IMG/VR virus record: IMGVR_UViG_3300035501_000922
Strand: one strand, 5' to 3'
Source: a virus
Taxonomy: Duplodnaviria > Caudoviricetes
Length of the DNA: 64,000 nt
Shown here: piece by piece, positions 5,670-51,930 of the stretch
Numbering within the stretch: the first letter of the stretch is position 1
Layout: each line of letters begins with the position of its first letter
Program-made: the position numbers and the translations under genes
The notes under the pieces: model-generated
What the model saw: the letters and a program-made list of their open reading frames with translations, nothing else
The model's database searches: none
Told to the model about the DNA's origin: nothing

Positions 5670-8600
5670 TTATGCAAAAATAAAGTTTAAACATCCTTCA
5701 TCAGAGTCATATTCTAATGATACTGAATCTGCAATATTTACTTTTCCTCCAGTACTAATACTACCGGTAGCACCAATACCACCAGATGTTGTTATAGCAC
5801 CTGTAGTAGATGATGTTGAATCAGTACCGTTAGTACTTTTAATTTCTTTGCTAGTTGTATTTCCTCTTGTTGTTACTGTTTCTAGTGTATCACTCTCTGT
5901 AATAGTTGCAGTAGATGTTGTACCGTCACCTTTAGTAACTGTAATAGTTTTTCCAGAGGCTGAAATAGATTTTATATATGTAGTATTAATTTGTTGTCCT
6001 GCGGAATCCTTAGTAGCATTAGTAGCAGTACCAGATAGATTGCCATAAAAATATGAAGTTGCCTTTATATTAGGAGCAATAAAGTATACTGCTTCTTCTC
6101 CTGCTTGTCCAACTAATGTTAACGAGGCAGGTGCTTGTATTGCATCATAATCTGTAAATACCAACTGGCAACCTTGGTCACCGTTAGCATTCATAAATTG
6201 AATTTTTGGGTTTGTGCTATCAAAAGCATTTGACGAAGACGTTCCACCTTTAATTGATATGCCACCGTTAGCATTTAATAAACCTGTTAGAGTACCACCC
6301 GATAGAGGCAAATAGCTGTGTGTATGTCCTTCAACAGATACTTTCGTATTTCCACTATAAAGTATACCGTTAGTATCAAGAACTTTATAATTAGTACCGG
6401 TACTTCCTAGTGTTCTGTTAGGAGTCCAATAGAACGTTCCGTTGTTATCCCACATACTATCTACAGTATCAGAACCTCTATACCATTGCAAACCTTCCCC
6501 TGCGCTATCACAATTATCTGAGAATAGGATACTGTTAACACCAAAGATATCACTATTGTTTAAATTCAGTGCACCATCACGAGCGTCAGTATACATACTT
6601 CCTTTAAGATTAAGAACACCAGTCATTGTTCCACCTGAGAGAGGCAGGTAACTATGAGTATGAGATGATGCTGCAGCACCCAATGAACTAACAGTTATTA
6701 CATTACTCCAGTTAGTACCAGTTAAAATTCTTGTCCAAGGAGCTACCCATGCGGTATCATTATCTACTGAACCACCTTTTCTAGAACGTATCCACAAATC
6801 TGTAGTTCCAGCCTTATTAGCAATTTGGGTTTGCCACATATTAGATGATGACACAGTGAATGACATATTAATGAAATGGTGCCAGTCAGTTTGACCATTA
6901 GGGTTAACGTACGCAGGTGTTGTAATGTCTGTATTATTCAACTGAGCCATTCCGATAGAATTACCGAATGTTGCTACAGTATTCATATTAGTACTACCGA
7001 CACTACTTTTATCATAAACATACCTTCCATCAGTACCCATCTCAGCAAAAGTCCATGACACGTTTGAACTACCGTCAAACGTTTTACCAGTATTACCGAT
7101 AGTTAATGTACGTGCTGTTTGCAGTTTCGTTGCTGTGTCAGCATTACCTACTAATGCACCAGTGAACGTCGTAGAGTAAACATTTTTCCATTTAATTGAA
7201 CTAGAGCCTAAGCTCTTAGAATTATTACCCCTAGGAACTATATCTCCCCACATAGCCCCTGAGCTAATACCATAATCAAGAACTTCTGTATATGCATATG
7301 CAGATACTGTTGCGTAATCATCACTATCACTTGTAACTTCTTCAATGCTTGTTATTCCAATTGTACTATATACTGTTACGGTACCTTGTGTGCTTAATAA
7401 TGTACCACCACTGTTAGTTGATGCTCGGTATCCATGTAGTTTTAAATAAAAAATCTGTGTCGATGCGTTTGGTTGATAAACACCAAGAAGATTGTTATAA
7501 TTATAAGAAGTAGACCTTATATATAATTTCTGAGCTCTATCATAAATATCAATAAACGTTGTACCTGCAATATTATCATAATTCGCTTTTACAAAAAGTC
7601 TTATCATACCAGTAAAGTATGTTGCACTGCCGCTCAATGTTAACTTAACATATACATTATCGGTTGTTGTAAAATTGCATGTTTTATAATCTGCATATAA
7701 AAATGTATTATTAAGTGAATGGAACCCATCAACAGTATCACTATCGGATGGTAGTGTTACTGTTTTAAGATTAACAGCAGTTACTCTACCGTACGAATCA
7801 GTTGTTACAGTGTCTATAGCATTAAACGTTCCTGAAGCTTTGGGGCTTACAGTAGAAGTATTGTTAGTTCTTGTAACAGTTGCTAAACTAAAAGTTGTAC
7901 TAGATAAACTCAAACCAGTACCTGCAGAATAGGTAGTATCAGAATAGAGTCTCTTCATCCAGCTTCCCCATGTACTTGTACTTGTGGCGTATGTGCGTTT
8001 ATAGCTGATATTGGCATTATCAGGTTCCCATATTTGAAAAGGTGTACCAACGGTAAAATCTACATACAATGTACCATGATTTGTAGTTGCTTGATTAGTA
8101 CCACTCGTAAATTTTATATGATATACACCTGTAGTAGTAATTGTGTTGAAATCCGTAGCAGTACTAATAGTTTTTTCAAGTAAGTAGGGATGCTCTGATG
8201 TAGCATGGGTGTATGCAGTATTCCAGTTACTAAGTTGAGTAGATGATAAAGAAATGCCATCATCACTATATTCTCTTATTGCACCGTTTTTATACCAATA
8301 AGTTGGTTTATCTGTCGAAAGATATATACAATAAGTGTTATACGAATCACCGATGTAAATGTATACATACCCATCATCTTCTATAGGGAGTGTTTGAGTA
8401 TACCATGTATCATCAAGATAAAAAAGACCATCTGTTCCTATAGTTCCCTTTAGATAAACTGAGCTATAAGCTGTTAATGTTGTACCACAGTTTGACGAAT
8501 ACCTAAAATCTATGGGTAAATTTGAATAAATTGCACTAGAGGCTGTTCTATTACCAGATGTAATATTACTACCGCCACTATAAAATAAAACCTTGTCGTA

Positions 8601-11549
8601 TCTGAATCCTACTGTATTTTTAGTTTTGCTAGTACCGGTACCTGATGTAGTTGTTAATGATTGCCAAGTACCACTACTATCTTGCATAATTAATGATGAT
8701 TGCATTATACCATTAGTGCCTGCAGGAGCTTGGAAACTAGCCCATATGAGTCTATCAATTGTATTATCATCACCAGATTCTCTAAGACCATTGTTACAAC
8801 CATCGTATTCAGCATAACCGGAATAATTCGTAGAACCTGTACCACTTATTGCAGAGTAGAGCTGCAGTGTATCAGTCATAGATACAGTGCAGTTATTAGC
8901 CTCAATAATCTGTATTTTAAAAGTTCTTGGATAAGACGATGAAGTTGGATTTGTGGAGTTTCTTAAACCCACACCTAATGCGTGACCATATCCATTTGTA
9001 AAACCTGTGTTTGTTAATGTATACAATACATGATAGTACAAGGTTCTATATGACGTGCTATAATGTGCATTAGTACATTTATAAATGGTTCTTCCCGCTT
9101 GTGAGCCCCATAACTCAACTTCAAAATGACCATTGTAATTACCTTGGTCTGGTACATATGCGGTTATCTGATATTTAATATGCCATTCCTTATACCAATC
9201 ATCAGGAACTATAGATGCAAAATAAAATGTAGCACTAGCAAAGTTATTTGCAGATGCATAAATTCCTGTATAGGTTTTTTCTGCAATTATATGGTTATGG
9301 TCGTTTTTAGATGCACCAATATCATCTAAAGTAAAACTGATTCCAGTACCTGCTCCGCCTAGCGATTTAGAGGTATTGCCTATTGTAATTGTAGAAGGAA
9401 TCATATTTTTACAAACTGCTATCGACCCATCATCGGAACCACCGAGATAAACTTTACGTGCGTATGAGCCACCATCATAGTTTAAATATAGGTCACCAAT
9501 AGAATTACTGGTGGTAAGACCGTCGATGTGTCTTGTAAGTAGTCTGCTCTCAGCAGTACTACCATTATAAGATATGGTTACATAGTTTTTGAATGTCTTA
9601 TGACCTGATATATTCTGGTTAGAATGAATATAAACTAAATCTTCAGGAGCAGGTGTCCATTGTGTAGCTCTGGTTCCTTTCTCAACCTTTATGTCCTTAA
9701 TATATATTAACGGATTGCTTGAACTAGGTAAAAAATCTACAAACTGGTAACTAGTATTGTCGTAGTACTTAGTGGGTGTCCATGTTAATACGAAATAAGC
9801 GTATGTCGTAGTTAAATTGCATTTTAAATTAGTACCATCACATATATCAACGGTTAGAGTTGCTGTATCCGATCCTGTTTTGGCATAGAAACTAACAGTA
9901 TATGGAACCGCCTCTGTAATAATGTTATATAGTCTTAACTGGTCAGTGGCATTTGCTGCTATTTGAAAGCCATTTATGGTTAAATCTCTAGTCGCAGCAG
10001 CATTAGCATAATACTTGGTAGTTGTGCTATACAGATTTCGTCCACCAATTGTTAGCCCTTCAATTTTATCATTTAAGATTTTACCTTGATTTGCAGAAAG
10101 TGAATCTGTTGTGCTTGTGCTTGTAAGAACATCTTGTATACCTCTCCATGTATCAGTGAATTTTGCATTGGACGGAACAGATGCTTCTAGCGTATAAGTA
10201 CATGCTTTAGCAACACCACTTGAAATATAAACAGGGTTAGTTTCTGAACCGGCTGAACCTATTTTACCAGCCATGTATGCCCATAGTGAGCTCACGGGTC
10301 TTCTGTGGTATGTTGTAGTAGTCGTTCCACCACCAGCATACTGCGAAATGTAATAGTCAGCATCATTGGGTGTGGCAGTACCCGTTGTTAATGAATTTAT
10401 AAATGAAATAGCGGCAGCATTCAGTGATGTTTGACCAGTACCACCATATGCAGCACCGAGTGTTCCAACATCTACAACAGAAGAGCCATTATACGTTTTA
10501 CCGTTAATTGACAACGAATTAGAAACTTTAGTTGCAGTAGCAGCATTTCCGGTAATACTTATTCCCCATGTGCCATTTGCTCCAGTTCCTGTTTTGGTTA
10601 CAGTATAATCAGTGTAGTTGCCTGTATGAAGTGCCAAGTATGATGTCTGACTCCATGTAGAAGAGTCAGAATCATACGACGGTATAGCAATGTAGATACT
10701 ACCATTTCCAGCCTTGCTGCCTGAATCATATCCTGTAGATATATACGTGCTTCCTGTATGATGCGTACCAGCAGAATAAGATGCACCTATCCATAAATTA
10801 GTGCCATTGTCAATAATACCCGCATATAAAGCTCCAGTTTTATCGGTTAAGCAGTAACCTCTATTAGTGGTATTTATACCTAAACCACCAGTAATACTAT
10901 TTGAACCCGTCATAGGAATATAATTATGAGTATGTGATGTTGCAGCAGCGCCTATTTCAGCTAACGTCCATGATACATCAGCACTACCATCAAATGTTTT
11001 CCCTGTACTACCAATTGTTAACTTACGAGCGGTTTTTAATTTAGTAGCAGTATTTATATTACCAATTATATCATTTACAAATCTTGATGAACCTGTTACA
11101 ACTAAATCACCAACATTTTCGCTGTCTGCATATAATTCACTATTTATAGTTGTAATACCGGTTACTGTTCCTCCACTTAATGGAAGATAGTTGTTTAATG
11201 ACGTTTGCAAATCTGTTATATTACTAGTAGTAAGTGACGTCCATGTACCGTCACCTTTTAAAAACTTCGTATTACTACCTGCAGATGGAGCAGGAACAAG
11301 ACCGCTTGTTCCTGCTCCGCTACTTGTAGCTCCAGTCATTGTATTTATACTATTTTTAAAGGCAAGCGAGCCTAATTTATTTAATACGTCTTTTACTGTT
11401 GTTAAAGAAGATATATTACTATTAGTATTTCCAGTAAGTGTAACATCGCTACTTGTCGTTACTGGGAATACCGTAATTATTTTTTGATCACTACCGTTCA
11501 CTTCAATCTTTTTCAATTGGGCATGAACTTCTTGTGATGTTGTTGCCAT
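5670..11549 (-). CDS. Long tail fibre protein, 1959 aa
   Basis: ATKLxTARxLTIG.TGKTFDGS and HTHSYLPLSGG repeats, KVEKGTRATQWTPAPED module. Confidence 0.85.
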   Translation of the reverse strand: MATTSQEVHAQLKKIEVNGSDQKIITVFPVTTSSDVTLTGNTNSNISSLTTVKDVLNKLGSLAFKNSINTMTGATSSGAGTSGLVPAPSAGSNTKFLKGDGTWTSLTTSNITDLQTSLNNYLPLSGGTVTGITTINSELYADSENVGDLVVTGSSRFVNDIIGNINTATKLKTARKLTIGSTGKTFDGSADVSWTLAEIGAAATSHTHNYIPMTGSNSITGGLGINTTNRGYCLTDKTGALYAGIIDNGTNLWIGASYSAGTHHTGSTYISTGYDSGSKAGNGSIYIAIPSYDSDSSTWSQTSYLALHTGNYTDYTVTKTGTGANGTWGISITGNAATATKVSNSLSINGKTYNGSSVVDVGTLGAAYGGTGQTSLNAAAISFINSLTTGTATPNDADYYISQYAGGGTTTTTYHRRPVSSLWAYMAGKIGSAGSETNPVYISSGVAKACTYTLEASVPSNAKFTDTWRGIQDVLTSTSTTDSLSANQGKILNDKIEGLTIGGRNLYSTTTKYYANAAATRDLTINGFQIAANATDQLRLYNIITEAVPYTVSFYAKTGSDTATLTVDICDGTNLKCNLTTTYAYFVLTWTPTKYYDNTSYQFVDFLPSSSNPLIYIKDIKVEKGTRATQWTPAPEDLVYIHSNQNISGHKTFKNYVTISYNGSTAESRLLTRHIDGLTTSNSIGDLYLNYDGGSYARKVYLGGSDDGSIAVCKNMIPSTITIGNTSKSLGGAGTGISFTLDDIGASKNDHNHIIAEKTYTGIYASANNFASATFYFASIVPDDWYKEWHIKYQITAYVPDQGNYNGHFEVELWGSQAGRTIYKCTNAHYSTSYRTLYYHVLYTLTNTGFTNGYGHALGVGLRNSTNPTSSSYPRTFKIQIIEANNCTVSMTDTLQLYSAISGTGSTNYSGYAEYDGCNNGLRESGDDNTIDRLIWASFQAPAGTNGIMQSSLIMQDSSGTWQSLTTTSGTGTSKTKNTVGFRYDKVLFYSGGSNITSGNRTASSAIYSNLPIDFRYSSNCGTTLTAYSSVYLKGTIGTDGLFYLDDTWYTQTLPIEDDGYVYIYIGDSYNTYCIYLSTDKPTYWYKNGAIREYSDDGISLSSTQLSNWNTAYTHATSEHPYLLEKTISTATDFNTITTTGVYHIKFTSGTNQATTNHGTLYVDFTVGTPFQIWEPDNANISYKRTYATSTSTWGSWMKRLYSDTTYSAGTGLSLSSTTFSLATVTRTNNTSTVSPKASGTFNAIDTVTTDSYGRVTAVNLKTVTLPSDSDTVDGFHSLNNTFLYADYKTCNFTTTDNVYVKLTLSGSATYFTGMIRLFVKANYDNIAGTTFIDIYDRAQKLYIRSTSYNYNNLLGVYQPNASTQIFYLKLHGYRASTNSGGTLLSTQGTVTVYSTIGITSIEEVTSDSDDYATVSAYAYTEVLDYGISSGAMWGDIVPRGNNSKSLGSSSIKWKNVYSTTFTGALVGNADTATKLQTARTLTIGNTGKTFDGSSNVSWTFAEMGTDGRYVYDKSSVGSTNMNTVATFGNSIGMAQLNNTDITTPAYVNPNGQTDWHHFINMSFTVSSSNMWQTQIANKAGTTDLWIRSRKGGSVDNDTAWVAPWTRILTGTNWSNVITVSSLGAAASSHTHSYLPLSGGTMTGVLNLKGSMYTDARDGALNLNNSDIFGVNSILFSDNCDSAGEGLQWYRGSDTVDSMWDNNGTFYWTPNRTLGSTGTNYKVLDTNGILYSGNTKVSVEGHTHSYLPLSGGTLTGLLNANGGISIKGGTSSSNAFDSTNPKIQFMNANGDQGCQLVFTDYDAIQAPASLTLVGQAGEEAVYFIAPNIKATSYFYGNLSGTATNATKDSAGQQINTTYIKSISASGKTITVTKGDGTTSTATITESDTLETVTTRGNTTSKEIKSTNGTDSTSSTTGAITTSGGIGATGSISTGGKVNIADSVSLEYDSDEGCLNFIFA

Positions 11550-11653: not shown

Positions 11654-12520
11654 TTAAATATTAAATGAACTAAAGAAATCATCAACTTTGTGTTTAGTCT
11701 CAGGGCTGATATTAGCATAAATCATATTATCTTTATCTTTAATGATAGCATGTCTATGTGAATTATCAACACCAATTAATGACTCCATAGGTAAATCAAA
11801 TGATTCCATAATCATCTGTGTATTAACATCAGTCTTACCGATTGATTCAAGAATTTCTTTTAACGGAATCATAACTCCATTAATAGTTTCTTTTATATCA
11901 TTAACAGATTCAGTTACTGTCTTAATAGCTTTACTTACAGGTTTAATACTACTAATTGCATGAGCTTCTTTATGTGAAGGATACCATACAGCATCATATG
12001 TAATTAAGCGTCTTACAACAACAGTAGGTTTATTATTAATAAGCTTTAATGTTGCTATTGCTCTACAGCTAAATGACGGTTTCCATCCTGCTAAAATCTC
12101 TTTAGCAAAACCAATTCCAATATCTGTTTGAGCTGACTGAATCTTTCCTTGTAAAAGATTTCCAGTAAGTTTAGGGTTCATAATCTTAAATGTTCTTTTA
12201 ACAGGAGGAACATTCTGGATTCTTTCAGGACTAAGTTGTTCATCTTTTCTTTCAGGTGTGGGGTGGTCAAATTCACCAAACCAACAACCATCACGAAGTA
12301 AACATTGAATTTTTTCTTGCTGTATACATTCCCAGATGTTATCAGCTTTATACATTCTCTGGTTTCTGTTAATAACATCAAAAGACTGTAAGTTAGTATC
12401 AAACGTTACATAAAAAATCTTATTCTTATCGTAAACATCCATGTTACTAACAAGCTTGTCTCCTGTAACAGATTCTGATATATACATAAGACCAGCATCT
12501 TCATTAAGTTTTGTATTCAT
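11654..12520 (-). CDS. Prohead protease (T4 gp21-like)
   Basis: NRNQRMY, GEFDHP, FSCRA, ITYDAVWYPSH motifs; C-terminal xxE|S sites typical of self-cleavage. Confidence 0.85.
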   Translation of the reverse strand: MNTKLNEDAGLMYISESVTGDKLVSNMDVYDKNKIFYVTFDTNLQSFDVINRNQRMYKADNIWECIQQEKIQCLLRDGCWFGEFDHPTPERKDEQLSPERIQNVPPVKRTFKIMNPKLTGNLLQGKIQSAQTDIGIGFAKEILAGWKPSFSCRAIATLKLINNKPTVVVRRLITYDAVWYPSHKEAHAISSIKPVSKAIKTVTESVNDIKETINGVMIPLKEILESIGKTDVNTQMIMESFDLPMESLIGVDNSHRHAIIKDKDNMIYANISPETKHKVDDFFSSFNI

Positions 12521-12537
12521 AAAATCACTACCTTTCT

Positions 12538-13323
12538 TTATAGTTTCAAAGCAATAAAACCATTATAGTAATATTGCTCAAGATTATATTCAAAAACACA
12601 ATCTGAATATGCATTCATTGGGATATTTGTTAAAGGTGTATAAAAAGCATACGGGCAATAATCATTATCACCCATTACAGGTACAGGTACTAACTCCATT
12701 TTTGAACCAACGATTGCAGAAAAATACTGTATATTCATATTATATAAACCCGTCGTTTTATTAGTAGTACACCGCAAATAATTTGTTGTAGTGGGTCCAC
12801 TGGCATATAAATTACGAGATGAACTATTATATGTAAATTCACTAGGTCGTATAATAGCGATGTTATCATTAATAGTCTTGGTTAAAATAATAGTAGATAC
12901 CGTCTTGTATGTTAAACCACAATCTGTGTAGTTAAATGTGAAACCGATACCATGGGTCGTTCTTATAATATCAGTAATGATACATTCACGTGCTGATGTA
13001 CCCGTATAACATAGATCAAGTCTGTTCGTATACCCTATTATTGCGTTGTTGAGTTCATGTATGACATAACCATTACCATCATATGACGCTGTATAAAGAA
13101 GATTACCATTAGCAGGTCTATAAACAAACCTAATTATTTCATTATTACCATTAAAGCAACGTAGATATAGTTTATCATCTGAAAATATTTTGTTATCTGT
13201 GGGCTCTTCAATTTTTATTTCCGTAAAATAATCCTGAGCATTTTCTTCCAACCACGCTTTTATTTCAGCAAACATGTTGTCATAACTGCTTAAGTTTTTA
13301 AGTTTATATCTCACAAGTCCCAT
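12538..13323 (-). CDS. Putative virion protein, paralog of 13330..14163
   Basis: Shared RYK.KN N-terminus, TKT.N.NIA.I.PS, GD.DYCP..FYT, YY.NGFIAL. Confidence 0.6.
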   Translation of the reverse strand: MGLVRYKLKNLSSYDNMFAEIKAWLEENAQDYFTEIKIEEPTDNKIFSDDKLYLRCFNGNNEIIRFVYRPANGNLLYTASYDGNGYVIHELNNAIIGYTNRLDLCYTGTSARECIITDIIRTTHGIGFTFNYTDCGLTYKTVSTIILTKTINDNIAIIRPSEFTYNSSSRNLYASGPTTTNYLRCTTNKTTGLYNMNIQYFSAIVGSKMELVPVPVMGDNDYCPYAFYTPLTNIPMNAYSDCVFEYNLEQYYYNGFIALKL

Positions 13324-13329
13324 AAGTAT

Positions 13330-14163
13330 TTATTCACTTCCTATCTCTAATGCAATAAACCCATTAAAATAATAAAGTTTACCCTCAAAATTCATTATAC
13401 TATCAGCTCTACTATCAATTAAAGAAAATGGTGATGTTAATGTATAAAATACATGAGGACAATAATCATCATCACCACACACTAATACGGGTGCTAGAGA
13501 TGTCAACTCATGATATGTTGTACTCCACGTAATGCTAGTATCATAATAGGTTCCTCTACTTTTATTTGTTACAGCTTGAAGATAGTTTGTTTTGTTTTCG
13601 CCACCGGTTGTAGTACCGGTACCATTATATAAATAGTAGCTAGGCATGATAACCGCTATGTTATTATTATAAGTTTTTGTAATTGTTACACACCCATAAC
13701 TAAATACCGAAGGATATAAAGATTCACCTATGCAGAAAGATATACCATAGTCTGTTTTTATTATCTCAAAAATACGATTCATTATATAATGATTTGCATA
13801 CCAGCCACTATTTGGAAAACCGTTATTTTTATTATATGTATCGCTTGGAAGTTCTAAATATTTATCGTCATAAATATATCTATAAATATTTAAACCATGA
13901 CTTTTATTTTCTCCACCGTCATTTGTATAATTCGTGAATTTAAAAATATTTTTATTATCTTTTTTAAACACAACACTTACCGTATCTTTTATTGCAGTAC
14001 CATTTGATACAGCAGTATTATAATCGTCGTTATTATCATAATCGCAAACAAAATTGATTTCATCAAAATAATCTGTAGCTATCTCATCCATGACCTGTTT
14101 AACTTCAGCCAAATTTTCATACTGATAAGTTACATTCTTTATTTTATATCTTGTAAAATTCAT
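13330..14163 (-). CDS. Putative virion protein, paralog of 12538..13323
   Basis: Same shared motifs; tandem duplication. Confidence 0.6.
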   Translation of the reverse strand: MNFTRYKIKNVTYQYENLAEVKQVMDEIATDYFDEINFVCDYDNNDDYNTAVSNGTAIKDTVSVVFKKDNKNIFKFTNYTNDGGENKSHGLNIYRYIYDDKYLELPSDTYNKNNGFPNSGWYANHYIMNRIFEIIKTDYGISFCIGESLYPSVFSYGCVTITKTYNNNIAVIMPSYYLYNGTGTTTGGENKTNYLQAVTNKSRGTYYDTSITWSTTYHELTSLAPVLVCGDDDYCPHVFYTLTSPFSLIDSRADSIMNFEGKLYYFNGFIALEIGSE

Positions 14164-14175
14164 GTAATCACCTTC

Positions 14176-14898
14176 TTAAATATAATACATGGGTTGCATA
14201 TCAATATGATATGAATCATCCCATTTATTGATTAATTCATCTCTTGCTGATTCAGCATTTGCCCAATCATCAAGTTTAAGATTTATATTTCCTATTGCAG
14301 TATTTAATTCTGTATACATTTTTAATGTAGGATAAAGATTTGCTTTTACATCAAGTGATGCTAACTGCATAAATGATTCTCTTGCAGTTTCAGGTATTGA
14401 TGCTAATGATTTGTCATGCTCAAATCCTAATTCTAAAACTATTTTAGAACTGGAATAAAGATTATATAGATATAATTTCCTTGGTGGTTCATATTTAAAT
14501 GTCATCTTAGGCATCATCTGGTTAATCATATTAGCACCGGCATTAGCAAGTAATGTTTGGCTTATTATGTTTCCTGTCATAAGAGGCATACCACCACCGT
14601 AATATCCAAGTCCTGAAAGACAAGAGTCATCATACCTAACGTCAAATACGTACAGTAAATTCCTACTCTTAAATTCAGGAAGCAAATATACTTTATACTG
14701 TTCAGTCTTATCAATTCTTGTTAAATCATTTGTATTTAATGTAAGAAATTCTTTACATGGTTGATACAATGAAAAAACAGGAAGAGTAATATCTTTAATA
14801 ATAGTTTCCATAGTTTCATCAAGATTTTCAAATGGCGTTGATATTGCCATTAATCCTAATGATAACTTAATTCTTGTTATTACATTAGACATATTCAC
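14176..14898 (-). CDS. Putative neck/head-completion protein (gp13-like)
   Basis: RIKLSLG N-terminus and WANAESARDELINKW C-terminus resemble myovirus neck proteins; structural context. Confidence 0.5.
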   Translation of the reverse strand: MNMSNVITRIKLSLGLMAISTPFENLDETMETIIKDITLPVFSLYQPCKEFLTLNTNDLTRIDKTEQYKVYLLPEFKSRNLLYVFDVRYDDSCLSGLGYYGGGMPLMTGNIISQTLLANAGANMINQMMPKMTFKYEPPRKLYLYNLYSSSKIVLELGFEHDKSLASIPETARESFMQLASLDVKANLYPTLKMYTELNTAIGNINLKLDDWANAESARDELINKWDDSYHIDMQPMYYI

Positions 14899-15421: not shown

Positions 15422-15748
15422 ATGGATAATTCTATTATATATGACACATTATTAGAAAAATATTCAAGTAATGAACTTAATGAAAATGAGTTCATTGAAC
15501 TGGTAGAAGCAGTATCACGAAAATCCGGTAATAAATCTTCTAATAATAGTCAAGACATTGCTAAAGCTAGAAAATTCGTAAAAGACGTTATAGATATGGC
15601 TAAAGAAAGGAATTTAAACTGCTTTGTGGTTACAGACGGGGCATCTGGAATTACAAACAATGGTAATGAAGCGGTTCGTAATGCTAGAAAAGCACAAGAA
15701 GAATGGGAAAGAAAACATGGATTTGATCCCGATGAGGATTGGGGTTAA
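15422..15748 (+). CDS. Putative internal head protein with acidic leader
   Basis: Leader YDTLLEKY...FIELVE|AV related to neighbouring leaders. Confidence 0.55.
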   Translation: MDNSIIYDTLLEKYSSNELNENEFIELVEAVSRKSGNKSSNNSQDIAKARKFVKDVIDMAKERNLNCFVVTDGASGITNNGNEAVRNARKAQEEWERKHGFDPDEDWG

Positions 15749-15750
15749 AT

Positions 15751-15784
15751 AAAAGGAATTAGTATACGAATACTAATTCCTTTT
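15751..15784. terminator. Intrinsic terminator hairpin
   Basis: AAAAGGAATTAGTAT/ATACTAATTCCTTTT. Confidence 0.8.
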
Positions 15785-15796
15785 ATGTCTACAATT

Positions 15797-15868
15797 AAAA
15801 AACAAAAATATAAATTAATTATTATGAAAGAAGGTACTTATAATGGATATTGAAAATGAATTATATGA
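15797..15868 (+). repeat. Promoter+RBS+MDIENELY leader cassette, copy 1
   Basis: About 72 bp identical to 19297..19368 and mostly to 18715..18786 (-). Confidence 0.9.
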
Positions 15869-16550
15869 TTTATTAATTGATGCTATATGTGAAAAGTATA
15901 ATGATGGTATTATTAATGAACAAGATAGTATACTGTTGTTAGAAGGCGTAACAAATGTACTAAGAGCAGGGGTACTTGAAAATATTGACACGTTAGCAGA
16001 AGATAATAACGATTATAAACGTGAATATAAGAAAGCTATGGCTGAGTATAAAGAGAATATGAGATGTATTAAAAAATTAGTGCGAGAAAAGGATTTTAAA
16101 AATGCACGGTTACATTTAAAAAAGGCTCAAGATTCTCTTAAAAAAGCTAAGGGTATTATTACTGATATGGATAGCAGCATGACAGCTACTGCACTTTCAT
16201 GGATTACTCCATCACTTGAAGAAGCAATGAAAATATGTTTGACAGAGTTTACGGCTGTTATTATGTACGAGGTATCAGCACGTATGGTCGGATCTGCTGC
16301 GACTAAAAAAGAACATGATGAAAATGTTAAAGTGGCACGAGCTGTCGGTAAAACTTTATCACACTCTATATTATTTATACGAAAACTTAGAGTTACTTTA
16401 AAGAATCCTTCTGATAATGCTACAACCAATCTTAATGCAACTAGAGCAAGAATCTTATTAGAATTCGAAAAACTTGAAGACAAATTAGAAGACTATGAAG
16501 ATGTCATTGATGACAAAGAAGATAAATATAATACAACTAAAGTTGAATAA
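15843..16550 (+). CDS. Putative internal head/ejection protein (MDIENELY family)
   Basis: Leader ending LLLE|G; paralog of 16596..17405. Confidence 0.6.
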   Translation: MDIENELYDLLIDAICEKYNDGIINEQDSILLLEGVTNVLRAGVLENIDTLAEDNNDYKREYKKAMAEYKENMRCIKKLVREKDFKNARLHLKKAQDSLKKAKGIITDMDSSMTATALSWITPSLEEAMKICLTEFTAVIMYEVSARMVGSAATKKEHDENVKVARAVGKTLSHSILFIRKLRVTLKNPSDNATTNLNATRARILLEFEKLEDKLEDYEDVIDDKEDKYNTTKVE

Positions 16551-16593
16551 ATAAAATAAGAGTTACTATAATTATAGTAACTCTTATTTTATT
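16551..16593. terminator. Bidirectional terminator
   Basis: ATAAAATAAGAGTTACTATA/TATAGTAACTCTTATTTTAT between convergent genes. Confidence 0.8.
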
Positions 16594-16595
16594 TA

Positions 16596-17405
16596 TTAAA
16601 GATACTTGTCAGCGGCTCTTTCCATCAGCATAATTGCATCATTTGCAGAAATCTCATCATTAGAGAACTTCTCACAAATTGCGTCAACTAAAGCATCATA
16701 CATATATTCAGCAGATTCATTAGTACTCTGTCCCTGCTTTTTATTAAGCTTAAGTTCTTTTTTATTAATCTTCTTTTCAAAGCTAAGAAGATGCTTCTTA
16801 CATTGTTGTAAGGAAAGGACGATTCTTGCACGAGCAGGGTTTAATGCTTTGGCAGGATCAAGACTAGGATCGTATGCTTTATAAATACTAACTGCATTAT
16901 TAAATGTGGTAGTAAATGCAACAGACGCCTGCGCCACCATCGTTTCCTGTTTACTTTTTTTTACAGTATCAGAACTTACTTTTCCTGCAATGTTTCCAAT
17001 CCCAAGTAATGTATTCAATGTGCCCATTGTTAATGTTATGGCAATATAACCCTGGGTATAATCGATCATCCAGCTCATGCAGGTATCTAATGCTGAAGAG
17101 TCAATGCTATTAATGAGCTTTATACCATCATTAATTTTATCAGTCGCTTTAGAAAGTTCCGTGCGTGCTTTGTCAAATTCACCTGACTTAATACTAGCCT
17201 TAAGCTGAGTTACTATCGTCTTATAATCAGAAACTATCTTCTTATATTCAGCCTTATACTTATCAGAAACCGCTTTTGATTTCTTTAAGGAATCATCAGG
17301 ATCTACAATACTGTCTGATTCCAGCATCAAATCCATACAAGATTCAATAAATTCAGCATCATCCGAATCATTAATTAATTCGAGAAAATCATTATAATCA
17401 TTCAT
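16596..17405 (-). CDS. Putative internal head/ejection protein, paralog of 15843..16550
   Basis: Shared YK.EYKK, DSS...T..SW, LN..RARI.L blocks; AACA-N6-TA at 17443..17454. Confidence 0.6.
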   Translation of the reverse strand: MNDYNDFLELINDSDDAEFIESCMDLMLESDSIVDPDDSLKKSKAVSDKYKAEYKKIVSDYKTIVTQLKASIKSGEFDKARTELSKATDKINDGIKLINSIDSSALDTCMSWMIDYTQGYIAITLTMGTLNTLLGIGNIAGKVSSDTVKKSKQETMVAQASVAFTTTFNNAVSIYKAYDPSLDPAKALNPARARIVLSLQQCKKHLLSFEKKINKKELKLNKKQGQSTNESAEYMYDALVDAICEKFSNDEISANDAIMLMERAADKYL

Positions 17406-17457
17406 TAATAAAACCTTCTTTCATAAAAATAAAAAATTTTTTTATTTTATTGTTGGT

Positions 17458-17938
17458 TTACGGATATCTTAATTTTTTTAGCAGTTCATTGGTTTCATCA
17501 TTGTACTTTCTTAGGTCATCCATAGTCAAACCATTATTATCATTTTTTCCATTTATGATTCTATTATTGGCAAGTATATCAGATCTACACTTGTATATGT
17601 CTCCTTTTATTTTTATTGCTTCAAGAAATTCATCAGTATTAATAATATCTTTATCTAAATACGGCTGTAAATCTTTAGCTAGCTTTTTCATTTCTTCTTT
17701 CTTCTTTTCATTGTCTTCAGAAGCTTTCTTTTTTCGAATATCACCAACACCTTTTAGAATAACTGTAGCAGCTATTGTTGCTGAAGCTATAATCAAAATC
17801 ATTTTTATCTTTTTCTTTCTTTTATCACTCTCTTTTTTTATTTTTTTTTTGTTCTTCTTCCTGCTTCTTCTTTTGTGCATCATCAGTGGCAATATCTGTT
17901 TCACACATTAATTCATATAATTCATTTTCAATATTCAT
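17458..17938 (-). pseudogene. MNIENELY-family gene frameshifted in an A10 tract
   Basis: ATG 17938 after AAGGAGG gives MNIENELYELMCETDIA...KKRE*; A9 instead of A10 at 17841..17850 would join it to the 17458 frame. Confidence 0.75.
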
Positions 17939-17967
17939 TAGTAAAACCTCCTTAAATATAAATCGAT

Positions 17968-18747
17968 TTATATGTTTGTCTTTTTCACATTTTTAATACC
18001 ATCTACAATAGCACCTATTCTGTCTCCGCCACTATCAATAAGTCTATCATATGCTTCTAATATTTTAGGACCATTTTTTTTATTGCTAGATGTATTGGTA
18101 CGATTTGTTTTTTTACTATCATTACCTATTGTTGTTGCTTTACTCACTGCTCCTGCGGCTTTATCAATGTTTTGTTTCGTTTTTTGAACAGCCTCGTTTA
18201 TTGTTTTTACTTTGTCTATTGTTTCTGTAGTACGTTTGCTAATAGATTCATACATATCGGTTCCAGCATTAACTATTTTTTCAAGTCCATCTTTACTTTG
18301 TTTTTTTATAGTATCCGACCGTTTATTCATTTTCGTATCTCTTTTTTTAAGTTCGGACAAATCACTGTTTAGTGATTTCATCGATTTTTTAAGTGTATTA
18401 GCGGCACCATTTAACTTACTAATATTTTGTTCTTGTTTATCCAATCGTTGTTTCAGTTCCTCCATTTCAAGTCTTTGTTTTATATATGTTATCGTTGCAA
18501 GTGCCGCAAAACATATTAATATTCCATTACGTATTTTTTTTTCTAATTTTGTCTTTTTATCGTTACCAGAATTACTACTATTATCTATATGTATTTCAAC
18601 CGCAGGTGAAGTTTTTTCTTCATTAATTGTTTTATGGTTATTTATACTAGCAGTTTTTTGTACAGCTTCCGTTAACAATATACTCATATCTTCACTGGTA
18701 TTATCATACTCACACATTAATTCATATAATTCATTTTCAATATCCAT
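17968..18747 (-). CDS. MDIENELY-family protein with one hydrophobic helix and coiled coil
   Basis: Leader MDIENELYELMCE...LLTE|AV; GILICFAALATITYI segment. Confidence 0.7.
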   Translation of the reverse strand: MDIENELYELMCEYDNTSEDMSILLTEAVQKTASINNHKTINEEKTSPAVEIHIDNSSNSGNDKKTKLEKKIRNGILICFAALATITYIKQRLEMEELKQRLDKQEQNISKLNGAANTLKKSMKSLNSDLSELKKRDTKMNKRSDTIKKQSKDGLEKIVNAGTDMYESISKRTTETIDKVKTINEAVQKTKQNIDKAAGAVSKATTIGNDSKKTNRTNTSSNKKNGPKILEAYDRLIDSGGDRIGAIVDGIKNVKKTNI

Positions 18748-18786
18748 TATAAGTACCTTCTTTCATAATAATTAATTTATATTTTT
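18715..18786 (-). repeat. Leader cassette, copy 2 (AACA of promoter lost)
   Basis: Identical to copy 3 from AAAAATATAAATT through ATGAATTAATG. Confidence 0.9.
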
Positions 18787-18795
18787 TGCATACAG

Positions 18796-19239
18796 TTATG
18801 ATTCGTCATCATGTACTTCATCATCAATATCTTCATCACTTGCATCTGATTGACATTCGTAGTTAAATTTATCAACTTCTAACGAGTGTTCTCTTTCAGT
18901 TTTGGTTTCAAAATAAGACTTAAGACAATACGCCATAAATGACACGGTTTCTGCAACTACTGCAGAGACTAAAGCATCTAGTGTTGTTAAATCCTGAAAT
19001 TTATACATTACAACCATTGCATATAATTCAACTACTGTACAGTTAATAACTATAAAAGCCATAATTTGTTTTGTTGTAGTTGATAAATCAATGGCACGTT
19101 TTTCAGGTTTAGCTGGCCCATAATCAGTCATAATATCTTTTATCTCTTGTTTTTCTTTTTTCTTCTTAGCTTTTTTAATAGCTTTTTCACGCTTTTTATC
19201 ATATTTTTTTGTATGTTCATTATTACTATCTATACCCAT
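18796..19239 (-). CDS. Two-TM membrane protein, putative holin
   Basis: Basic N-terminus, two hydrophobic helices, YCLKSYFETK, acidic tail; late motif 19276..19287. Confidence 0.5.
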   Translation of the reverse strand: MGIDSNNEHTKKYDKKREKAIKKAKKKKEKQEIKDIMTDYGPAKPEKRAIDLSTTTKQIMAFIVINCTVVELYAMVVMYKFQDLTTLDALVSAVVAETVSFMAYCLKSYFETKTEREHSLEVDKFNYECQSDASDEDIDDEVHDDES

Positions 19240-19296
19240 ATGTAACACCTTCTTTATTTTTTTGTTTTATTCAAATAAAATGGTGTTTATATGTAA

Positions 19297-19375
19297 AAAA
19301 AACAAAAATATAAATTAATTATTATGAAAGAAGGTACTTATAATGGATATTGAAAATGAATTATATGAATTAATG
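19297..19375 (+). repeat. Leader cassette, copy 3
   Basis: Identical to copies 1 and 2; contains AACA AAAATA TA at 19301..19312. Confidence 0.9.
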
Positions 19376-19939
19376 ATTGAAGCTGGAGTTCCCAGTAAAG
19401 AATTTACTATAAGTGGTAATAAATTAAAAACTTTAAGCAAAAAACTCGAGGATACAGACGGATTAATTCGTGAAAAAATAAAAGATTTAAAACGAATTGA
19501 AAAACAGATACAATCTAATTTTAAAGCAGATACTATCATGCATGTCGGTAAAAAAGAGTTAGTAAATGGAAAAGGAGCTGCTAAAAATGCAGAATATATT
19601 TATCGTTATTTAACAGAAACTTTCGTTAAAGCCTCAGGGGATGTAAAACTTTATAAAATTAAAGCTAAGAAAAAATATATCAGTAAAACTGAATATGATG
19701 AGATTGTAAGTTTTATTCATGATATTTATCATGTAGAAAAATACGTAACACGATTGGATAAAGCGACAAATGATAGCTCAGCTAATAAACAATTTAAATT
19801 TAAAAGTGATATTAATGATATTAGAACAAGTAAAGAAATAGATGATATAATGGACATACCAAATTTAGTAAAATCAAAACAAACAGGTATTAATCATGCT
19901 GATCTTAATGTGCGTAGTAGATTCAAAAAGGTGTTATAA
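19343..19939 (+). CDS. Basic putative internal head protein (MDIENELY family)
   Basis: MDIENELYELMIE|AG followed by unrelated Lys-rich body. Confidence 0.65.
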   Translation: MDIENELYELMIEAGVPSKEFTISGNKLKTLSKKLEDTDGLIREKIKDLKRIEKQIQSNFKADTIMHVGKKELVNGKGAAKNAEYIYRYLTETFVKASGDVKLYKIKAKKKYISKTEYDEIVSFIHDIYHVEKYVTRLDKATNDSSANKQFKFKSDINDIRTSKEIDDIMDIPNLVKSKQTGINHADLNVRSRFKKVL

Positions 19940-19942
19940 ATA

Positions 19943-19982
19943 TAAAGATATGAGAGAGGTTTTTCCTCTCTCATATCTTTTA
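19943..19982. terminator. Bidirectional terminator
   Basis: TAAAGATATGAGAGAGG/CCTCTCTCATATCTTT. Confidence 0.8.
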
Positions 19983-20714
19983 TAATTCTTTCTTAAGTTC
20001 AGAAGGTAGCATAAGACCTTTAGTAACTAAGTCGGTATTTAGTCCCATTCCTAAGAAGTATACTGAAGTAGTATTCAGTGTCGTTTTATTTAATACGTCA
20101 TCCTCAAGGTCTTCCATAGTAGCATAACCATTAAGGGATATATTTCTAAGCATCTGTTCTTTCATGTGCATATCATCAGCTCTAGGACCGTTTAACTCTC
20201 TTAAAGTGTTATTTAATCCCAATGATATAAGCATAGTATTTTCAAGGTCTGATTCACGACCGTTCTTATCTCCACCAGTTACCTGACCTGTTATAGACGA
20301 ACGAGAATCGATATTAGTTGAAATACCATTCTTTTTGCTAACAGTCTGTTGTGTTCTCTTTATGTTAATATATCCAACAGGAACAGGTTCTGTTGTTCCT
20401 ATAACTTTGGATTTATCCATTGTTAAATGAGGCATAAACACATCTTCGAATAAAGGAACATTGATAACTTTAGCAGCTCTTTCAATATCCTCCATATCAA
20501 TTGTATGTTCATAATCAACTATATCAAGGATTAAGTATGCATCTTCGTTTGCAAAGAGAGCTTTAAAATAAGATTCAAATTGTTGATTAGACATAGGTTG
20601 GAATAGCTCTTTATACTTTTTTGTATTCGTTCCTGATTTATCAAATGCATCAAAAAAATCATATATTAGTTTTTCCATTTTACCACGTTTGTTGTCCGTA
20701 ATCAAACTCATCAC
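19980..20714 (-). CDS. RNA polymerase beta C-terminal fragment subunit (likely virion RNAP)
   Basis: VPVGYINIKR..Q...RSSITGQVTG...GRESDLE...LREL...RADD aligns with the RpoB C-terminus; in late operon. Confidence 0.75.
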   Translation of the reverse strand: MMSLITDNKRGKMEKLIYDFFDAFDKSGTNTKKYKELFQPMSNQQFESYFKALFANEDAYLILDIVDYEHTIDMEDIERAAKVINVPLFEDVFMPHLTMDKSKVIGTTEPVPVGYINIKRTQQTVSKKNGISTNIDSRSSITGQVTGGDKNGRESDLENTMLISLGLNNTLRELNGPRADDMHMKEQMLRNISLNGYATMEDLEDDVLNKTTLNTTSVYFLGMGLNTDLVTKGLMLPSELKKEL

Positions 20715-21828
20715 CCACTTTCAATTTATAATCAGCATCATCTATATTTATTTCCATAAGGTTTCTATATTCACCTTGGTCGTCTTTATTAGTCCATAAT
20801 GATATACCTCGTATTTTATTAGGCTCACCATTAATAGCAAATAACAAATACACATTTTCATCATCATATTTAACCAAATGACTCATACTTACAGTATCAA
20901 AACATACTACTGCATGTTCATTTATCATTGCTGTCTTAACAAATGCTAGTTGCTTTTCCGTAAGTTTAGTTGTAAACTGTGTATTACCAATATATGATAC
21001 AATATCACCATCTAAAAGATCTCTAAGACGATACATCATTGTCTCTACGCTTTCATTAACTGGTATTATGTTATCTCCAAAAACAGCATAGTTTGATTTA
21101 GATTCAGTCAATTCTCTTTTAAGGTTTGTATCTAGTACTTTAGAACAATGACTACAGAAATCCCTATCAGATATAACATTTGATAATATTCCTATTACAT
21201 CATTATCGTACCTAAATAACCGATTAATTATATTTGACATCATATTCTCCGTACCATTGTACTTTGAATATATCTCTGCATAAATAGTAGGAGATAAACC
21301 AAGTTGCGTAAAGAATAAGAATATTAACGACGCTAATTCTTCTATATCTCCATGATTAGCAATGTTATTATTTATATACTTCAGTATTGTAGTATAAAAT
21401 TTCTGGTCTAATACCCAATCTATTTCTTTACTTCCTTCTTCAAATGAATAATTTATATATAACTCATATCCTTCAAGTTTCCAAGGTATAAGATTAAATA
21501 ATATAAATGAATAGGTTCTTTTATCAGATATACTGTCAATAATAAATCTTATAGACCTGAAAACATTTTTTATTTCATCTAATGTTGATACCTGAGAATT
21601 CAGTATTTCCAATAAACCATTACATACAGCTTGTTTTTCATAAGCACTAAATTTATTAATTGTGTGTACCATATGACTATACTGTGTACATTCTTTTTCA
21701 AGTGGGTCATTAGCATTAACACGAATAAATGTTTTCATTGGTAAATTAAAGTCATTACGATGACTAAATATTTTTACTTTATTTTCCCACGTACCATTTA
21801 AAAATGTATCTCTAAAATAATCCGTCAT
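20680..21828 (-). CDS. Hypothetical (possibly virion) protein
   Basis: 382-aa ORF in late operon, GGTGA RBS, LTE|S and VNE|S motifs. Confidence 0.7.
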   Translation of the reverse strand: MTDYFRDTFLNGTWENKVKIFSHRNDFNLPMKTFIRVNANDPLEKECTQYSHMVHTINKFSAYEKQAVCNGLLEILNSQVSTLDEIKNVFRSIRFIIDSISDKRTYSFILFNLIPWKLEGYELYINYSFEEGSKEIDWVLDQKFYTTILKYINNNIANHGDIEELASLIFLFFTQLGLSPTIYAEIYSKYNGTENMMSNIINRLFRYDNDVIGILSNVISDRDFCSHCSKVLDTNLKRELTESKSNYAVFGDNIIPVNESVETMMYRLRDLLDGDIVSYIGNTQFTTKLTEKQLAFVKTAMINEHAVVCFDTVSMSHLVKYDDENVYLLFAINGEPNKIRGISLWTNKDDQGEYRNLMEINIDDADYKLKVGDEFDYGQQTW

Positions 21829-50392: not shown

Positions 50393-51930
50393 TCAATAAT
50401 CCATTTCTTCCTCAGGAATCTCCATTTCCTCAGGACTAATAGCTGATAATCTCGATTCAAGTGAAGGAATAATATTACTATAGAGAATTTTATACAATTC
50501 ACGGTCATTCTTAAAATCTTGGTGCATATTCTTTAATGTAAACTTATGGTCCTTATTATCTGTGAGATAATATCCATTTCTATTACCACCAAGAACACCA
50601 ATCTCTTTTGCATAGTTAACTGATGACCTTAAAGAATCAATACCACGAACTTTATCGTATATTAATGGAACAACCTGACCGGCTTGGTTAGTTCTTGATT
50701 TGATTATCTCAAGTCTAACACCAAAACCATCAACTCCATCATCTTCCATATTATACTTTTCTCCACCAACAGCAACAAATTTAATCAATATATGTGCTAG
50801 GAATTGGGGCGTTTTTCCCAAAAATATTCATATAGATTCGTTACATCTATATCTGTTTATGCAGCTCTATGTCACCATAGAAGTTTAGACTATATCTTCA
50901 TCTTTATATTCTATCACCAAATATAAAGAGCTCTCCATTTCCACTCTACTTAGAGTGTACTCTACTCAGTTACTCACTTAGATATTTCTTCTAAGCTACC
51001 TTTTCGATAGTCGTTGAACCTTACTCTTATAAAGAGTCTTGGCTGCTGATTGCCTCCCTGAGACCTCCCAGCAATTAAGAGAGTTTGTCCAGTAGCTCAT
51101 GCTACATTGGGGCAGAAAATTTTACCCGGTAACGCCTCATCTTGTTTTAAGTATAATATCTCTGAAGGTGATTTAACGATACCCATATTCGGGTTAGTCT
51201 TAATCTGATTGATAGCTATGAGTGTAATGTTAGCCGTTCTAATATATGGCATAATTTCATTAAAGAATCTACCAATTTCTCCGGTTAATCTCATTCTATC
51301 AGTCTGGGTGCCTATCTCTTCAAGCTTAGCAAGATCCTTTTTATCATTTTCATTTAAACTCATTGTAATAGTAGCAATTGAGTCAAGAATAATAACAGAC
51401 GGGACATACAGTTCAATTTCTTCACCGAACTCATTCATCTTTCCCGTGTTATATTTATAAAGGTCTGGATTACTTGTTTTTTCTTTATAAAGTTCCATTA
51501 TGGTTTTTTTCATATCTTCAAGAGTTGATTTCTCTTGTCTTAAGATATACTTACCATTACTCATATCAGTCATACTAAATTTAGTAAGAGCCTGAATACG
51601 AGAATAGTTCATGGCTTGTTCAAGGTCAAAATGAATAACAACACCATTATCAAAATCACGTACAATATTAGAAGCAATCTGTACTGCTGTTGTAGTTTTT
51701 GATGTAGAGGGTTTACCAATAAATTCAACGTATGACCCTGCTGTAATTCCTATAGATGAATATGTATCCTTGAGATTATTATTTTCGTCAAATACATTTA
51801 CTTTGTATCCCAGATAATAGTCTAACACTGGGAATCCAGTTTTATAGGAAATAACCGAAGCATTACAATCAAAGTAATTATTTTTACCACTATTACTTCT
51901 TAACGCTTCTACTAAAAAATTTTTGCCCAT
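50393..51930 (-). CDS. recA: RecA/UvsX-like recombinase, 2 exons, about 410 aa
   Basis: TGFPVLDY.LG, GKPSTSKTT, FDLEQA, ILDSIA, INQI; exons 51930-51124 and 50818-50393 join as ALPG|GKTP. Confidence 0.85.
50819..51123 (-). mobile_element. Group I intron (ORF-less), 305 nt, in recA
   Basis: Core motifs; P1 GGGU/GCCC; P10 UUUUCU/GGAAAA. Confidence 0.9.

Follow-up and report, generated by a model that had tools for sequence, protein, structure and literature searches.

How does a segment of about 70 bp, nearly unchanged from copy to copy, come to stand at the head of several genes whose bodies have nothing in common, and what does the peptide that it encodes do? This question is raised by positions 15,422–19,939 of a 64,000-nucleotide stretch of viral DNA (IMG/VR record IMGVR_UViG_3300035501_000922; the whole stretch is called the window below), where a promoter, a ribosome site and a short leader peptide, MDIENELY(D/E)L, recur together as a cassette. 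The reading favoured here, to which about an even chance is given, is that the leader belongs to a protein module acting as a capsid-loading tag, similar to that of the internal proteins of phage T4, in an AR9-like phage. The locus itself, judged by its gene content and promoters, is a hyperplastic late-gene region within the head-gene block.

Identical heads of about 70 bp on three genes in both orientations had been reported in a preliminary description of this DNA, and they are confirmed at the start codons 15843 (+), 18747 (−) and 19343 (+), with exact runs of 65–72 nt. Copies 1 and 3 of the cassette agree over 72 nt, from −46 to +26 relative to the start codon (15797–15868 and 19297–19368), copies 2 and 3 agree exactly over another 72 nt, and copies 1 and 2 over 65 nt around the start codon (Table 1). 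Exact identity between copies stops 26–33 nt inside the coding sequence, and the shared coding part comprises the first 9–11 codons, MDIENELY[D/E]L. Beyond it the gene bodies are unrelated, as had been stated: BLASTP among the three bodies finds nothing past residues 1–14, 1–23 or 1–36. Two of the exact copies lie on the plus strand and one on the minus strand, together with a diverged fourth copy that is identical to the others at 65–72 of 90 positions. For the gene behind this fourth copy (17938) the leader peptide is present as described, but the DNA has diverged and the gene is frameshifted; for a fifth gene (15422), the proposed relationship of the leader comes down to a weak match (BLASTP E 0.013; hidden Markov model of the module, E 0.0098). 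The locus holds an extra gene with a diverged leader and 5′ untranslated region (5′UTR), o16596, which had been absent from the earlier list. The genome-wide cassette search that had been called for was run within the 64-kb window, where a 26-mer over the first codons occurs at four sites (≤3 mismatches) against none in 100 shuffles.

The cassette had also been described as recently copied, and this view gains support because no other sequence searched contains the exact leader. Neither exact nor degenerate forms of the leader pattern had a match in IMG/VR, and their one match in metagenome contigs was a chance internal site of a bacterial protein. Furthermore, since MDIDMIFEEL, the leader of a relative (G001), is single-copy in the genome of that relative and the leader of the present phage is absent elsewhere, the cassette has multiplied recently and in this phage only. 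Inverted repeats that could flip the genes between them are formed by copies 1 and 2 and likewise by copies 2 and 3, and three locus genes lie on the opposite strand here, unlike in relatives. Identical cassettes of 65–72 nt in both orientations illustrate how genes can be shuffled and inverted in these genomes through short homologies of promoter plus leader.

The composition of the cassette, a late-type promoter followed by a ribosome site and the leader, was likewise borne out. Late promoters of AR9 have the form AACA-N6-TA/G, the last base being the transcription start (PMC5312081). In copies 1 and 3, AACA-N6-TA is found at −43 from the start codon (in copy 1, AACA at 15801–15804 and TA at 15811–12), as it is ahead of other late genes. 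Across the window, AAACA-N6-T[AG] at −31 to −52 precedes nine of the 18 genes of the structural block (3.7–22.6 kb) against one of the 39 genes elsewhere. The early motif TATA[TC]ATTAT stands ahead of eight of the 39 genes of the replication/early block and is missing from the structural block; its eight sites, 19–85 nt upstream of their genes in the block 29933–57633, mirror the distribution of the late motif. Sigma-70-like sites are not enriched in the window (30 found, 33 expected). The late motif is largely confined to the structural block, and the promoter of the cassette is therefore a late promoter of the phage itself; the genes behind it would, on the evidence of this motif, be expressed late. 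Because the homology of copy 2 to the other copies breaks inside the AACA box, o17968 probably depends on the o18796 promoter and is probably transcribed from it by read-through. The cassette 5′UTR with its ribosome site (TATGAAAGAAGGT..TATAATG) is also common to a 1959-aa structural gene at 5670–11549 and to o16596.

The leader had initially been likened to the short N-terminal signal of T4. This part of the preliminary description has to be modified: the leader is no self-contained signal of the T4 type, 10–13 residues long, as MDIENELY(D/E)L is, by alignment, the first helix of a module of about 40 residues that occurs C-terminally, internally and in tandem as well. Eleven pieces from the termini of proteins of this locus and of related-phage loci were aligned (alignment A1) into a 41-position profile, the consensus of which, ..Y..IvDAICEKYsNGEIs.Eq.iLLlE(a/k)...KYL, suggests two helices with an N-G-E-I-S/T turn between them; a low-confidence model of o15843 places helices at residues 3–18 and 26–54. 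Within the locus, the module is whole in o15843, shortened in o17968, reduced to helix 1 in o19343 and in the frameshifted gene, and weak in o15422. The proteins o15843 and o16596 are true paralogs (BLASTP E 1e-16), and residues 7–34 of o15843 share 50% identity with the C-terminus of o16596.

When the profile was compared with 1.84 billion representative proteins, 71 matches were obtained at E≤1e-3, 18 of them at E≤1e-10, and at least three of the 71 (P0036, P0057 and the Sel1-repeat protein P0071) are false matches to repeat proteins. Genuine members, roughly 65 in number, carry one to four module copies in N-terminal, internal, C-terminal or tandem position; the C-terminal and tandem occurrence points to a docking domain with optional removal. 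No Pfam family is matched convincingly by the module, and PDB sequence searches with the module and with a YezG-like cargo protein returned nothing. A formal parallel is SHOCT (PF09851; PMC3581485), also a short two-helix domain with a G-x-I-T/S...E...LL core that is found on many unrelated proteins. Membership of this family was not supported for the window modules, which give no SHOCT match at E≤1, whereas two of 69 module proteins match PF09851, a few others give weak SHOCT-like matches, and the module of P0025 gives a weak match (E 0.004) to the SHOCT-like DUF1707.

The cargo behind the module is diverse in relatives. In G001, a complete genome of 250 kb, and G002, the module was found at eleven sites at E≤1, eight of them in G001; in this search N-terminal copies head two membrane/coiled-coil proteins. 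A GNAT acetyltransferase (Pfam Acetyltransf_1/_3, E 1e-9), encoded beside an RNA polymerase beta-like gene, is also module-headed, as is a P-loop protein of G002, for which the Pfam evidence of a P-loop is weak. At the related locus L003, two extra module-tagged genes directly follow the gene for the beta subunit of the virion RNA polymerase (vRNAP). Their products are a YezG-like immunity protein (PF04634, 32.9 bits against a cut-off of 21.7; domain at residues 40–159) and a P-loop protein, the gene of the latter standing behind its own AACA-N6-TA promoter. Together with a 147-aa open reading frame (ORF) between them, the two genes make up a 2.2-kb insertion that is absent from the otherwise near-identical loci L004 and L005. 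The insertion is flanked by a direct repeat of 24–30 nt (6910–6939 and 9076–9105) whose sequence derives from the 3′ terminus of the vRNAP beta gene, and at the sequence level this clearly bears the mark of genes inserted or deleted through short homologies. Among close homologs of the YezG-like cargo, the linker that follows LLLEASI(K/R)K varies by indels. Other module proteins include P0018, with two N-terminal modules and a body containing HExxH (IMG/VR yielded no loci for P0018 or P0053), and the commonest partner of the module is the helical family typified by o15843 and o16596, where it stands at either end or in tandem.

The surroundings of these genes are equally changeable. In nine IMG/VR relatives with 70–88% identity in the polymerase piece, the interval from the vRNAP beta gene to the phrog_18911 gene differs in content and length in every lineage, and only o18796 and o14977 recur. 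The other occupants are proteins made of a leader plus a membrane segment, module proteins, leucine-rich repeat genes and tail-fibre-like genes; leaders in other lineages are acidic and amphipathic, for example MDIDMIFEELVLE-S (here and below, the hyphen after an acidic residue marks the end of a leader) and MSTFDELMNQL. The proposal of a variable locus thus holds, the region being hypervariable among relatives and differing in cargo, and in relatives unrelated cargo (the GNAT, YezG-like and P-loop proteins) stands behind an N-terminal module of this kind. That the cassette could serve any captured ORF is overstated, because several members are membrane/coiled-coil proteins or belong to the one o15843/o16596 helical family, one copy is frameshifted, and the window cargo consists of ORFans.

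Endings of the hydrophobic-x-E type, noted earlier, are found throughout the locus (LMIE-A, LMCE-T, LLLE-G, LLTE-A, LVE-A and LMLE-S), and the gp21-type protease that had been pointed out nearby is encoded about 3 kb from the leader locus at 11654–12520 (−), scoring above the Pfam cut-offs for Peptidase_S77 (34.8 bits; cut-off 27) and Peptidase_S80 (29.6 bits; cut-off 23.4). It is presumed to be the processing enzyme for the leaders, and T4 gp21 cleaves after Glu in L/I-x-E. A hydrophobic-x-E motif lies within residues 6–40 in all six locus proteins, which are not independent of one another, and in five of the 51 other ORFs of the window; the hypergeometric estimate for this difference, about 1e-5, is inflated by the common ancestry of the six. 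Many N-terminal module copies in the clade read (I/L/M)-L-x-E followed by A, G or S (for example LLLE-AS, LLLLE-AS and MLLE-A), with LLLE-K in the GNAT protein, LLD-A in the L004 homolog of o15843 and LLD-F in the P-loop protein as exceptions. The combination E-[AGS] occurs in nine of 30 N-terminal copies against nine of 72 internal or C-terminal ones, which mostly read E-K or E-R (Fisher p 0.047, on sequences that are related to one another). In the cultured relative phiR1-37, the annotation lists g197–g199, which lie downstream of the vRNAP beta gene, as proteins of the virion structure, and g199 as a precursor whose mature N-terminus is residue 56, after A-L-T-E55 in the translation. Profiles of the o15843 family and of the module gave no significant match to g197, g198, g199 or g202 of this phage, the best being the g202 N-terminus, ...SLLEAS (hhalign E 0.055–0.13). 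As a side observation, g202 (9826–10398 in L002) lies directly downstream of the vRNAP beta gene and begins MLFIESYIKDEVMKEPNISLLEAS, which resembles the module ending without reaching significance.

Under the capsid-tag model, the 65–72-nt segment of promoter, 5′UTR and leader would have been copied by homologous recombination onto three unrelated genes. The module would dock the tagged protein onto a component of the assembling prohead core, the gp21/gp175-type protease at 11654–12520 would then cut after Glu, as gp21 does with the T4 capsid-targeting sequence (CTS), and the cargo would be packaged and delivered along with the DNA. We infer docking, cleavage, packaging and injection from the sequence, and favour the model because it accommodates the late type of promoter, the presence of the protease gene, the location within the head-gene block, the variety of the cargo and the leader endings in Glu plus a small residue. 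The CTS and the polymorphic internal protein (IP) loci of T-even phages were reportedly treated by Mullaney and Black in 1996 and by Repoila and colleagues in 1994. In these phages, proteins whose only common part is an N-terminal leader are loaded on the prohead core; gp21 then clips them and they are injected, several of them acting as inhibitors of host nucleases (PMC3012670, PMC12373910). Similarly, otherwise unrelated late proteins here have in common an N-terminal leader with a hydrophobic-x-Glu ending and nothing else, the gene for a gp21-family protease lies near the locus, the locus is a hotspot that differs among related phages, and the YezG-like immunity cargo of relatives parallels the IPs as nuclease inhibitors. 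However, MDIENELYELM.E and the T4 signal MKTYQEFIAE have no evident similarity by eye, the analogy being independent of homology. In addition, the address is a two-helix module of about 40 residues, found also C-terminally and in tandem, instead of 10 residues, and the uncultured AR9-like phage uses its own RNA polymerases and the AACA-N6-TA promoter. By this comparison, the cassette system is not a strict member of the T4 system. The idea of internal proteins with a shared leader is already known from T-even phages; new are the setting, an AR9-like lineage that has RNA polymerases of its own, the occurrence of the cassette at the DNA level on both strands, the widespread uncatalogued two-helix module used at either terminus, and cargo that in relatives includes a polymorphic-toxin immunity protein and a GNAT enzyme.

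The propeptides of head and ejection proteins of SPN3US and phiKZ (in the latter, inner-body proteins) provide another point of comparison, and the broad group is shared (phiKZ/AR9-related phages with a virion RNA polymerase and an S80-type protease; PMC5694885, PMC10052503). SPN3US gp53 and gp54 are paralogs whose N-terminal 15 residues are identical, and the ejection protein gp47 consists of a propeptide followed by a membrane helix (PMC5694885). Such identical-N-terminus paralogs, the gp47-type layout and a family size that varies between phages recall the present locus. The two differ in that no SPN3US/phiKZ family is matched here, including PF12699, the inner-body paralogs (no match of the locus proteins at E≤0.1), in that the DNA itself is identical across unrelated genes here, and in the cut motif, presumed to be L-x-E here whereas the SPN3US and phiKZ proteases cleave at A-x-E and S/A/G-x-E (PMC5694885).

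In a variant of the capsid-tag model, possible but unlikely in our estimate, the module would be a position-independent address domain for capsid loading that docks on a core family of the o15843/o16596 helical type and with which uncultured jumbo phages load a changeable kit of injected cargo. It would work at either terminus and in tandem, the core family itself bearing the module; the cargo would be enzymes and immunity or anti-defence proteins (GNAT, YezG-like, P-loop and membrane-inserting); and N-terminal copies would be clipped at LLxE-A while C-terminal copies were kept. Such a system would be distinct from the T4 CTS and nearer in logic to the targeting peptides of encapsulins. Encapsulin cargo-loading peptides are short tags that, placed at either terminus, send unrelated cargo into an HK97-fold shell. 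They differ from the module in being short extended peptides, encapsulins are not phages, and no homology is claimed.

Several observations weigh against a capsid tag. C-terminal, internal and tandem copies cannot, by their position, act as cleaved N-terminal propeptides, and the module is absent from the genomes of the cultured relatives Goe21 and phiR1-37. Profiles of the o15843 family show no homology with phiR1-37 g197–g202, and the g199 annotation calls residue 56 'Asp' where the translation has Glu. Hydrophobic-x-E is common in Glu/Leu-rich helices, and one of the five background ORFs that contain it looks, by eye, like a gp25-type baseplate protein. Both structure models are of low confidence and too weak for a fold search (AlphaFold pLDDT 60.6 for o15843, with about 43 in the module region, and 46 for the L003 module+YezG protein). 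Moreover, hydrophobic membrane-like segments occur in three locus proteins (o17458fs, o18796 and, as a short segment, o17968) and in many module proteins of relatives. The protein o18796 looks holin-like and is conserved beside vRNAP beta, and the putative AR9 holin g082 is numbered close to the vRNAP beta gene g078, adjacency here being read from the numbering. The membrane-like segments and the surroundings of o18796 are also the main support for a different explanation, in which the module serves as a general domain for docking or oligomerisation in late proteins that act on the membrane or envelope (a holin partner, spanin-like, lysis or superinfection proteins) and are never packaged. Weak Rz-like spanin matches of o17968 (phrog_739, E 3.8e-5), the C-terminal and tandem copies, and the weak SHOCT-like signals (DUF1707 and PF09851) agree with this explanation. 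The locus contains no lysin, and o18796 has no PHROG or Pfam match. Nevertheless, no holin, spanin or lysin family is convincingly matched, the spanin matches fall on the coiled-coil region, and the SHOCT-like signals do not extend to the modules of the window. The same N-terminal module is found on soluble cargo (GNAT, YezG-like, P-loop, o19343 and o15422), and SPN3US gp47 shows that proteins composed of a propeptide and a membrane helix can be packaged. On balance, a purely membrane-acting module seems unlikely, though it is a rival to be taken seriously.

Alternatively, the repeat could be a regulatory or recombination cassette alone, a late analogue of the promoter early stem-loop (PeSL) elements of T4-type phages (PMC2839356, PMC4122927), spread or homogenised by recombination or gene conversion with its codons as passengers. 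As in PeSL, the segment from promoter to start codon is conserved and borders variable ORFans of a hyperplastic region, where it provides short homologies through which genes can be shuffled, and PeSL-like sequences are present at T-even IP loci (PMC2839356). The occurrence of the 5′UTR and ribosome site on the 1959-aa structural gene and on o16596, the end of exact identity 26–33 nt into the coding sequence, the hairpin ahead of copy 1 and the short direct repeats that bound the L003 insertion could all be accommodated in this way. However, the peptide is part of a conserved protein module found in many proteins that lack DNA identity, and the diverged copies (o17458fs, o16596 and o15422) retain the peptide pattern despite DNA drift; because the pattern is conserved where the DNA has drifted, a regulatory role on its own is weakened and appears decidedly unlikely. 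The cassette was also not accepted as a PeSL element in the strict sense, since its promoter is of the late AR9 type and not the early sigma-70 type, its conserved part enters the coding sequence, and no conserved stem-loop lies within the repeat, the hairpin at 15751–15784 being outside it. Lastly, repeats in an uncultured phage can be mis-joined during assembly, and an artefact of the metagenomic contig might be suspected. This is highly improbable because each of the products of o19343, o15843 and o17458 is found without a single difference on 3–4 contigs, the longest of 256 kb; the repeats are, in addition, shorter than a read, and every copy runs into a long open frame.

Should the capsid-tag model be correct, the packaged and injected proteins of many uncultured gut and rumen jumbo phages would become readable from sequence, with the YezG-like immunity protein and the GNAT enzyme among the candidates for counter-defence cargo. 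The model would further supply a second, unrelated and longer address tag for putting foreign proteins into phage heads, and would extend the 'internal protein hotspot' idea of T-even phages to the AR9/phiKZ-related lineage, in which the o15843/o16596 family is a candidate scaffold/core counterpart.

Table 1. Cassette copies, genes, terminator-like elements and flanking head genes of the locus, in window coordinates.
Feature	Position	Strand	Description
Prohead maturation protease (T4 gp21 / phiKZ gp175 type)	11654–12520	−	Pfam Peptidase_S77 and Peptidase_S80; phrog_3014/207
'Virion structural protein' phrog_18911	14176–14898	−	Conserved; second flank of the variable locus
o14977, 141 aa	14977–15402	+	Basic; conserved in relatives
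o15422, 108 aa	15422–15748	+	Weak N-terminal module (LVE-A), small ORFan body
A/T-rich terminator-like hairpin	15751–15784	+	Directly upstream of copy 1, outside the repeat; read from the sequence, missed by a GC-biased scan
Cassette copy 1	15797–15868	+	Late promoter, ~30-nt 5′UTR with GAAAGAAGG ribosome site, first 9 codons of o15843
o15843, 235 aa	15843–16550	+	Complete N-terminal module (residues 1–41, ending LLLE-G), all-helical body
Palindrome, 29-nt perfect arms	16543–16600	.	Between convergent o15843 and o16596; likely bidirectional terminator
o16596, 269 aa	16596–17405	−	Diverged N-terminal leader (LMLE-S), o15843-type helical body, canonical C-terminal module (229–269)
Frameshifted gene o17458fs	17458–17938	−	Leader MNIENELYELMCE (helix 1, ending LMCE-T), acidic/basic stretch, +1 shift, one membrane segment, ~90-residue tail
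Diverged cassette copy 4	17909–17984	−	About 72–80% identical; heads the frameshifted gene, ATG 17938
o17968 (P0062), 259 aa	17968–18747	−	Shortened module (LLTE-A), short hydrophobic segment with basic flanks, long coiled coil
Cassette copy 2	18715–18786	−	Heads o17968; homology to copies 1/3 from −39; GCAA replaces AACA
o18796, ~146 aa	18796–19236	−	No leader; N-terminus basic, C-terminus acidic; two hydrophobic segments, one of them strong, the other weaker; own AACA-N6-TA promoter
Cassette copy 3	19297–19375	+	Promoter, 5′UTR and leader of o19343; identity with copy 2 reaches +33
o19343, 198 aa	19343–19939	+	Helix 1 only (LMIE-A, residues 10–14) on an ORFan body
Bidirectional terminator	19944–19980	.	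Between o19343 and the vRNAP beta gene
vRNAP beta-subunit piece, 244 aa	19980–20714	−	phrog_3233, E 1e-42; conserved flank of the variable locus

In the frameshifted gene, the leader frame stops after 37 codons, and a 148-aa ORF (17458–17904) continues in the +1 frame; the frame break lies near an A10 run (about 17840–17850; 17833–17856). The frameshift is reproducible, because an identical shifted product of 141 aa is found on three contigs and no unshifted form was found. The gene could be a fixed pseudogene, or it could be rescued by transcriptional or translational slippage. Homolog searches with o19343, o15843 and o17458 returned self matches only, and tblastn of o16596, o18796, P0014 and P0054 against cultured phages gave no match. 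The ESM Atlas offered nothing usable for o19343, and its structural hint at a HicB-like fold for o15422 was below threshold and was discarded. Among the recurrent genes, o18796 is the one locus gene conserved beside vRNAP beta in relatives, and the L007 homolog of o14977 has the module twice, as a strong copy at the C-terminus and a weak internal copy.

The window is AT-rich (28–39% G+C) and, on its gene content, its source is an uncultured AR9/PBS1-like jumbo phage; near-identical DNA was not found among cultured phages. In the vRNAP beta piece, the closest cultured relatives are Bacillus phage Goe21 (PBS1/AR9 group, 42% identity), Listeria LPJP1, Yersinia phiR1-37 and Staphylococcus jumbo phages. 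A 382-aa ORF (20680–21828, −) overlaps the start of this piece by 35 nt, and in Goe21 the 244-aa piece corresponds to the C-terminal region of one protein of 517 aa; this could reflect either a further split of the gene in this lineage or a fusion in Goe21. Two paralogous proteins of 261 and 277 aa (12538–13323 and 13330–14163, both −; E 1e-27) are encoded in the interval from the prohead protease to the phrog_18911 gene; they have no Pfam or PHROG match, occur in 3–5 copies in relatives and may be a family of head paralogs. Elsewhere, the window contains tail-fibre-like giant genes and replication genes in addition to the head maturation protease. Five group I introns (Rfam RF00028, 83–96 bits) lie on the minus strand at 41730–42000, 43985–44252, 44339–44675, 50865–51133 and 62285–62588, together with an HNH-type endonuclease ORF at 42339–43250, and segments of about 70 nt upstream of the ORFs 43429–43941 and 50393–50821 resemble each other.

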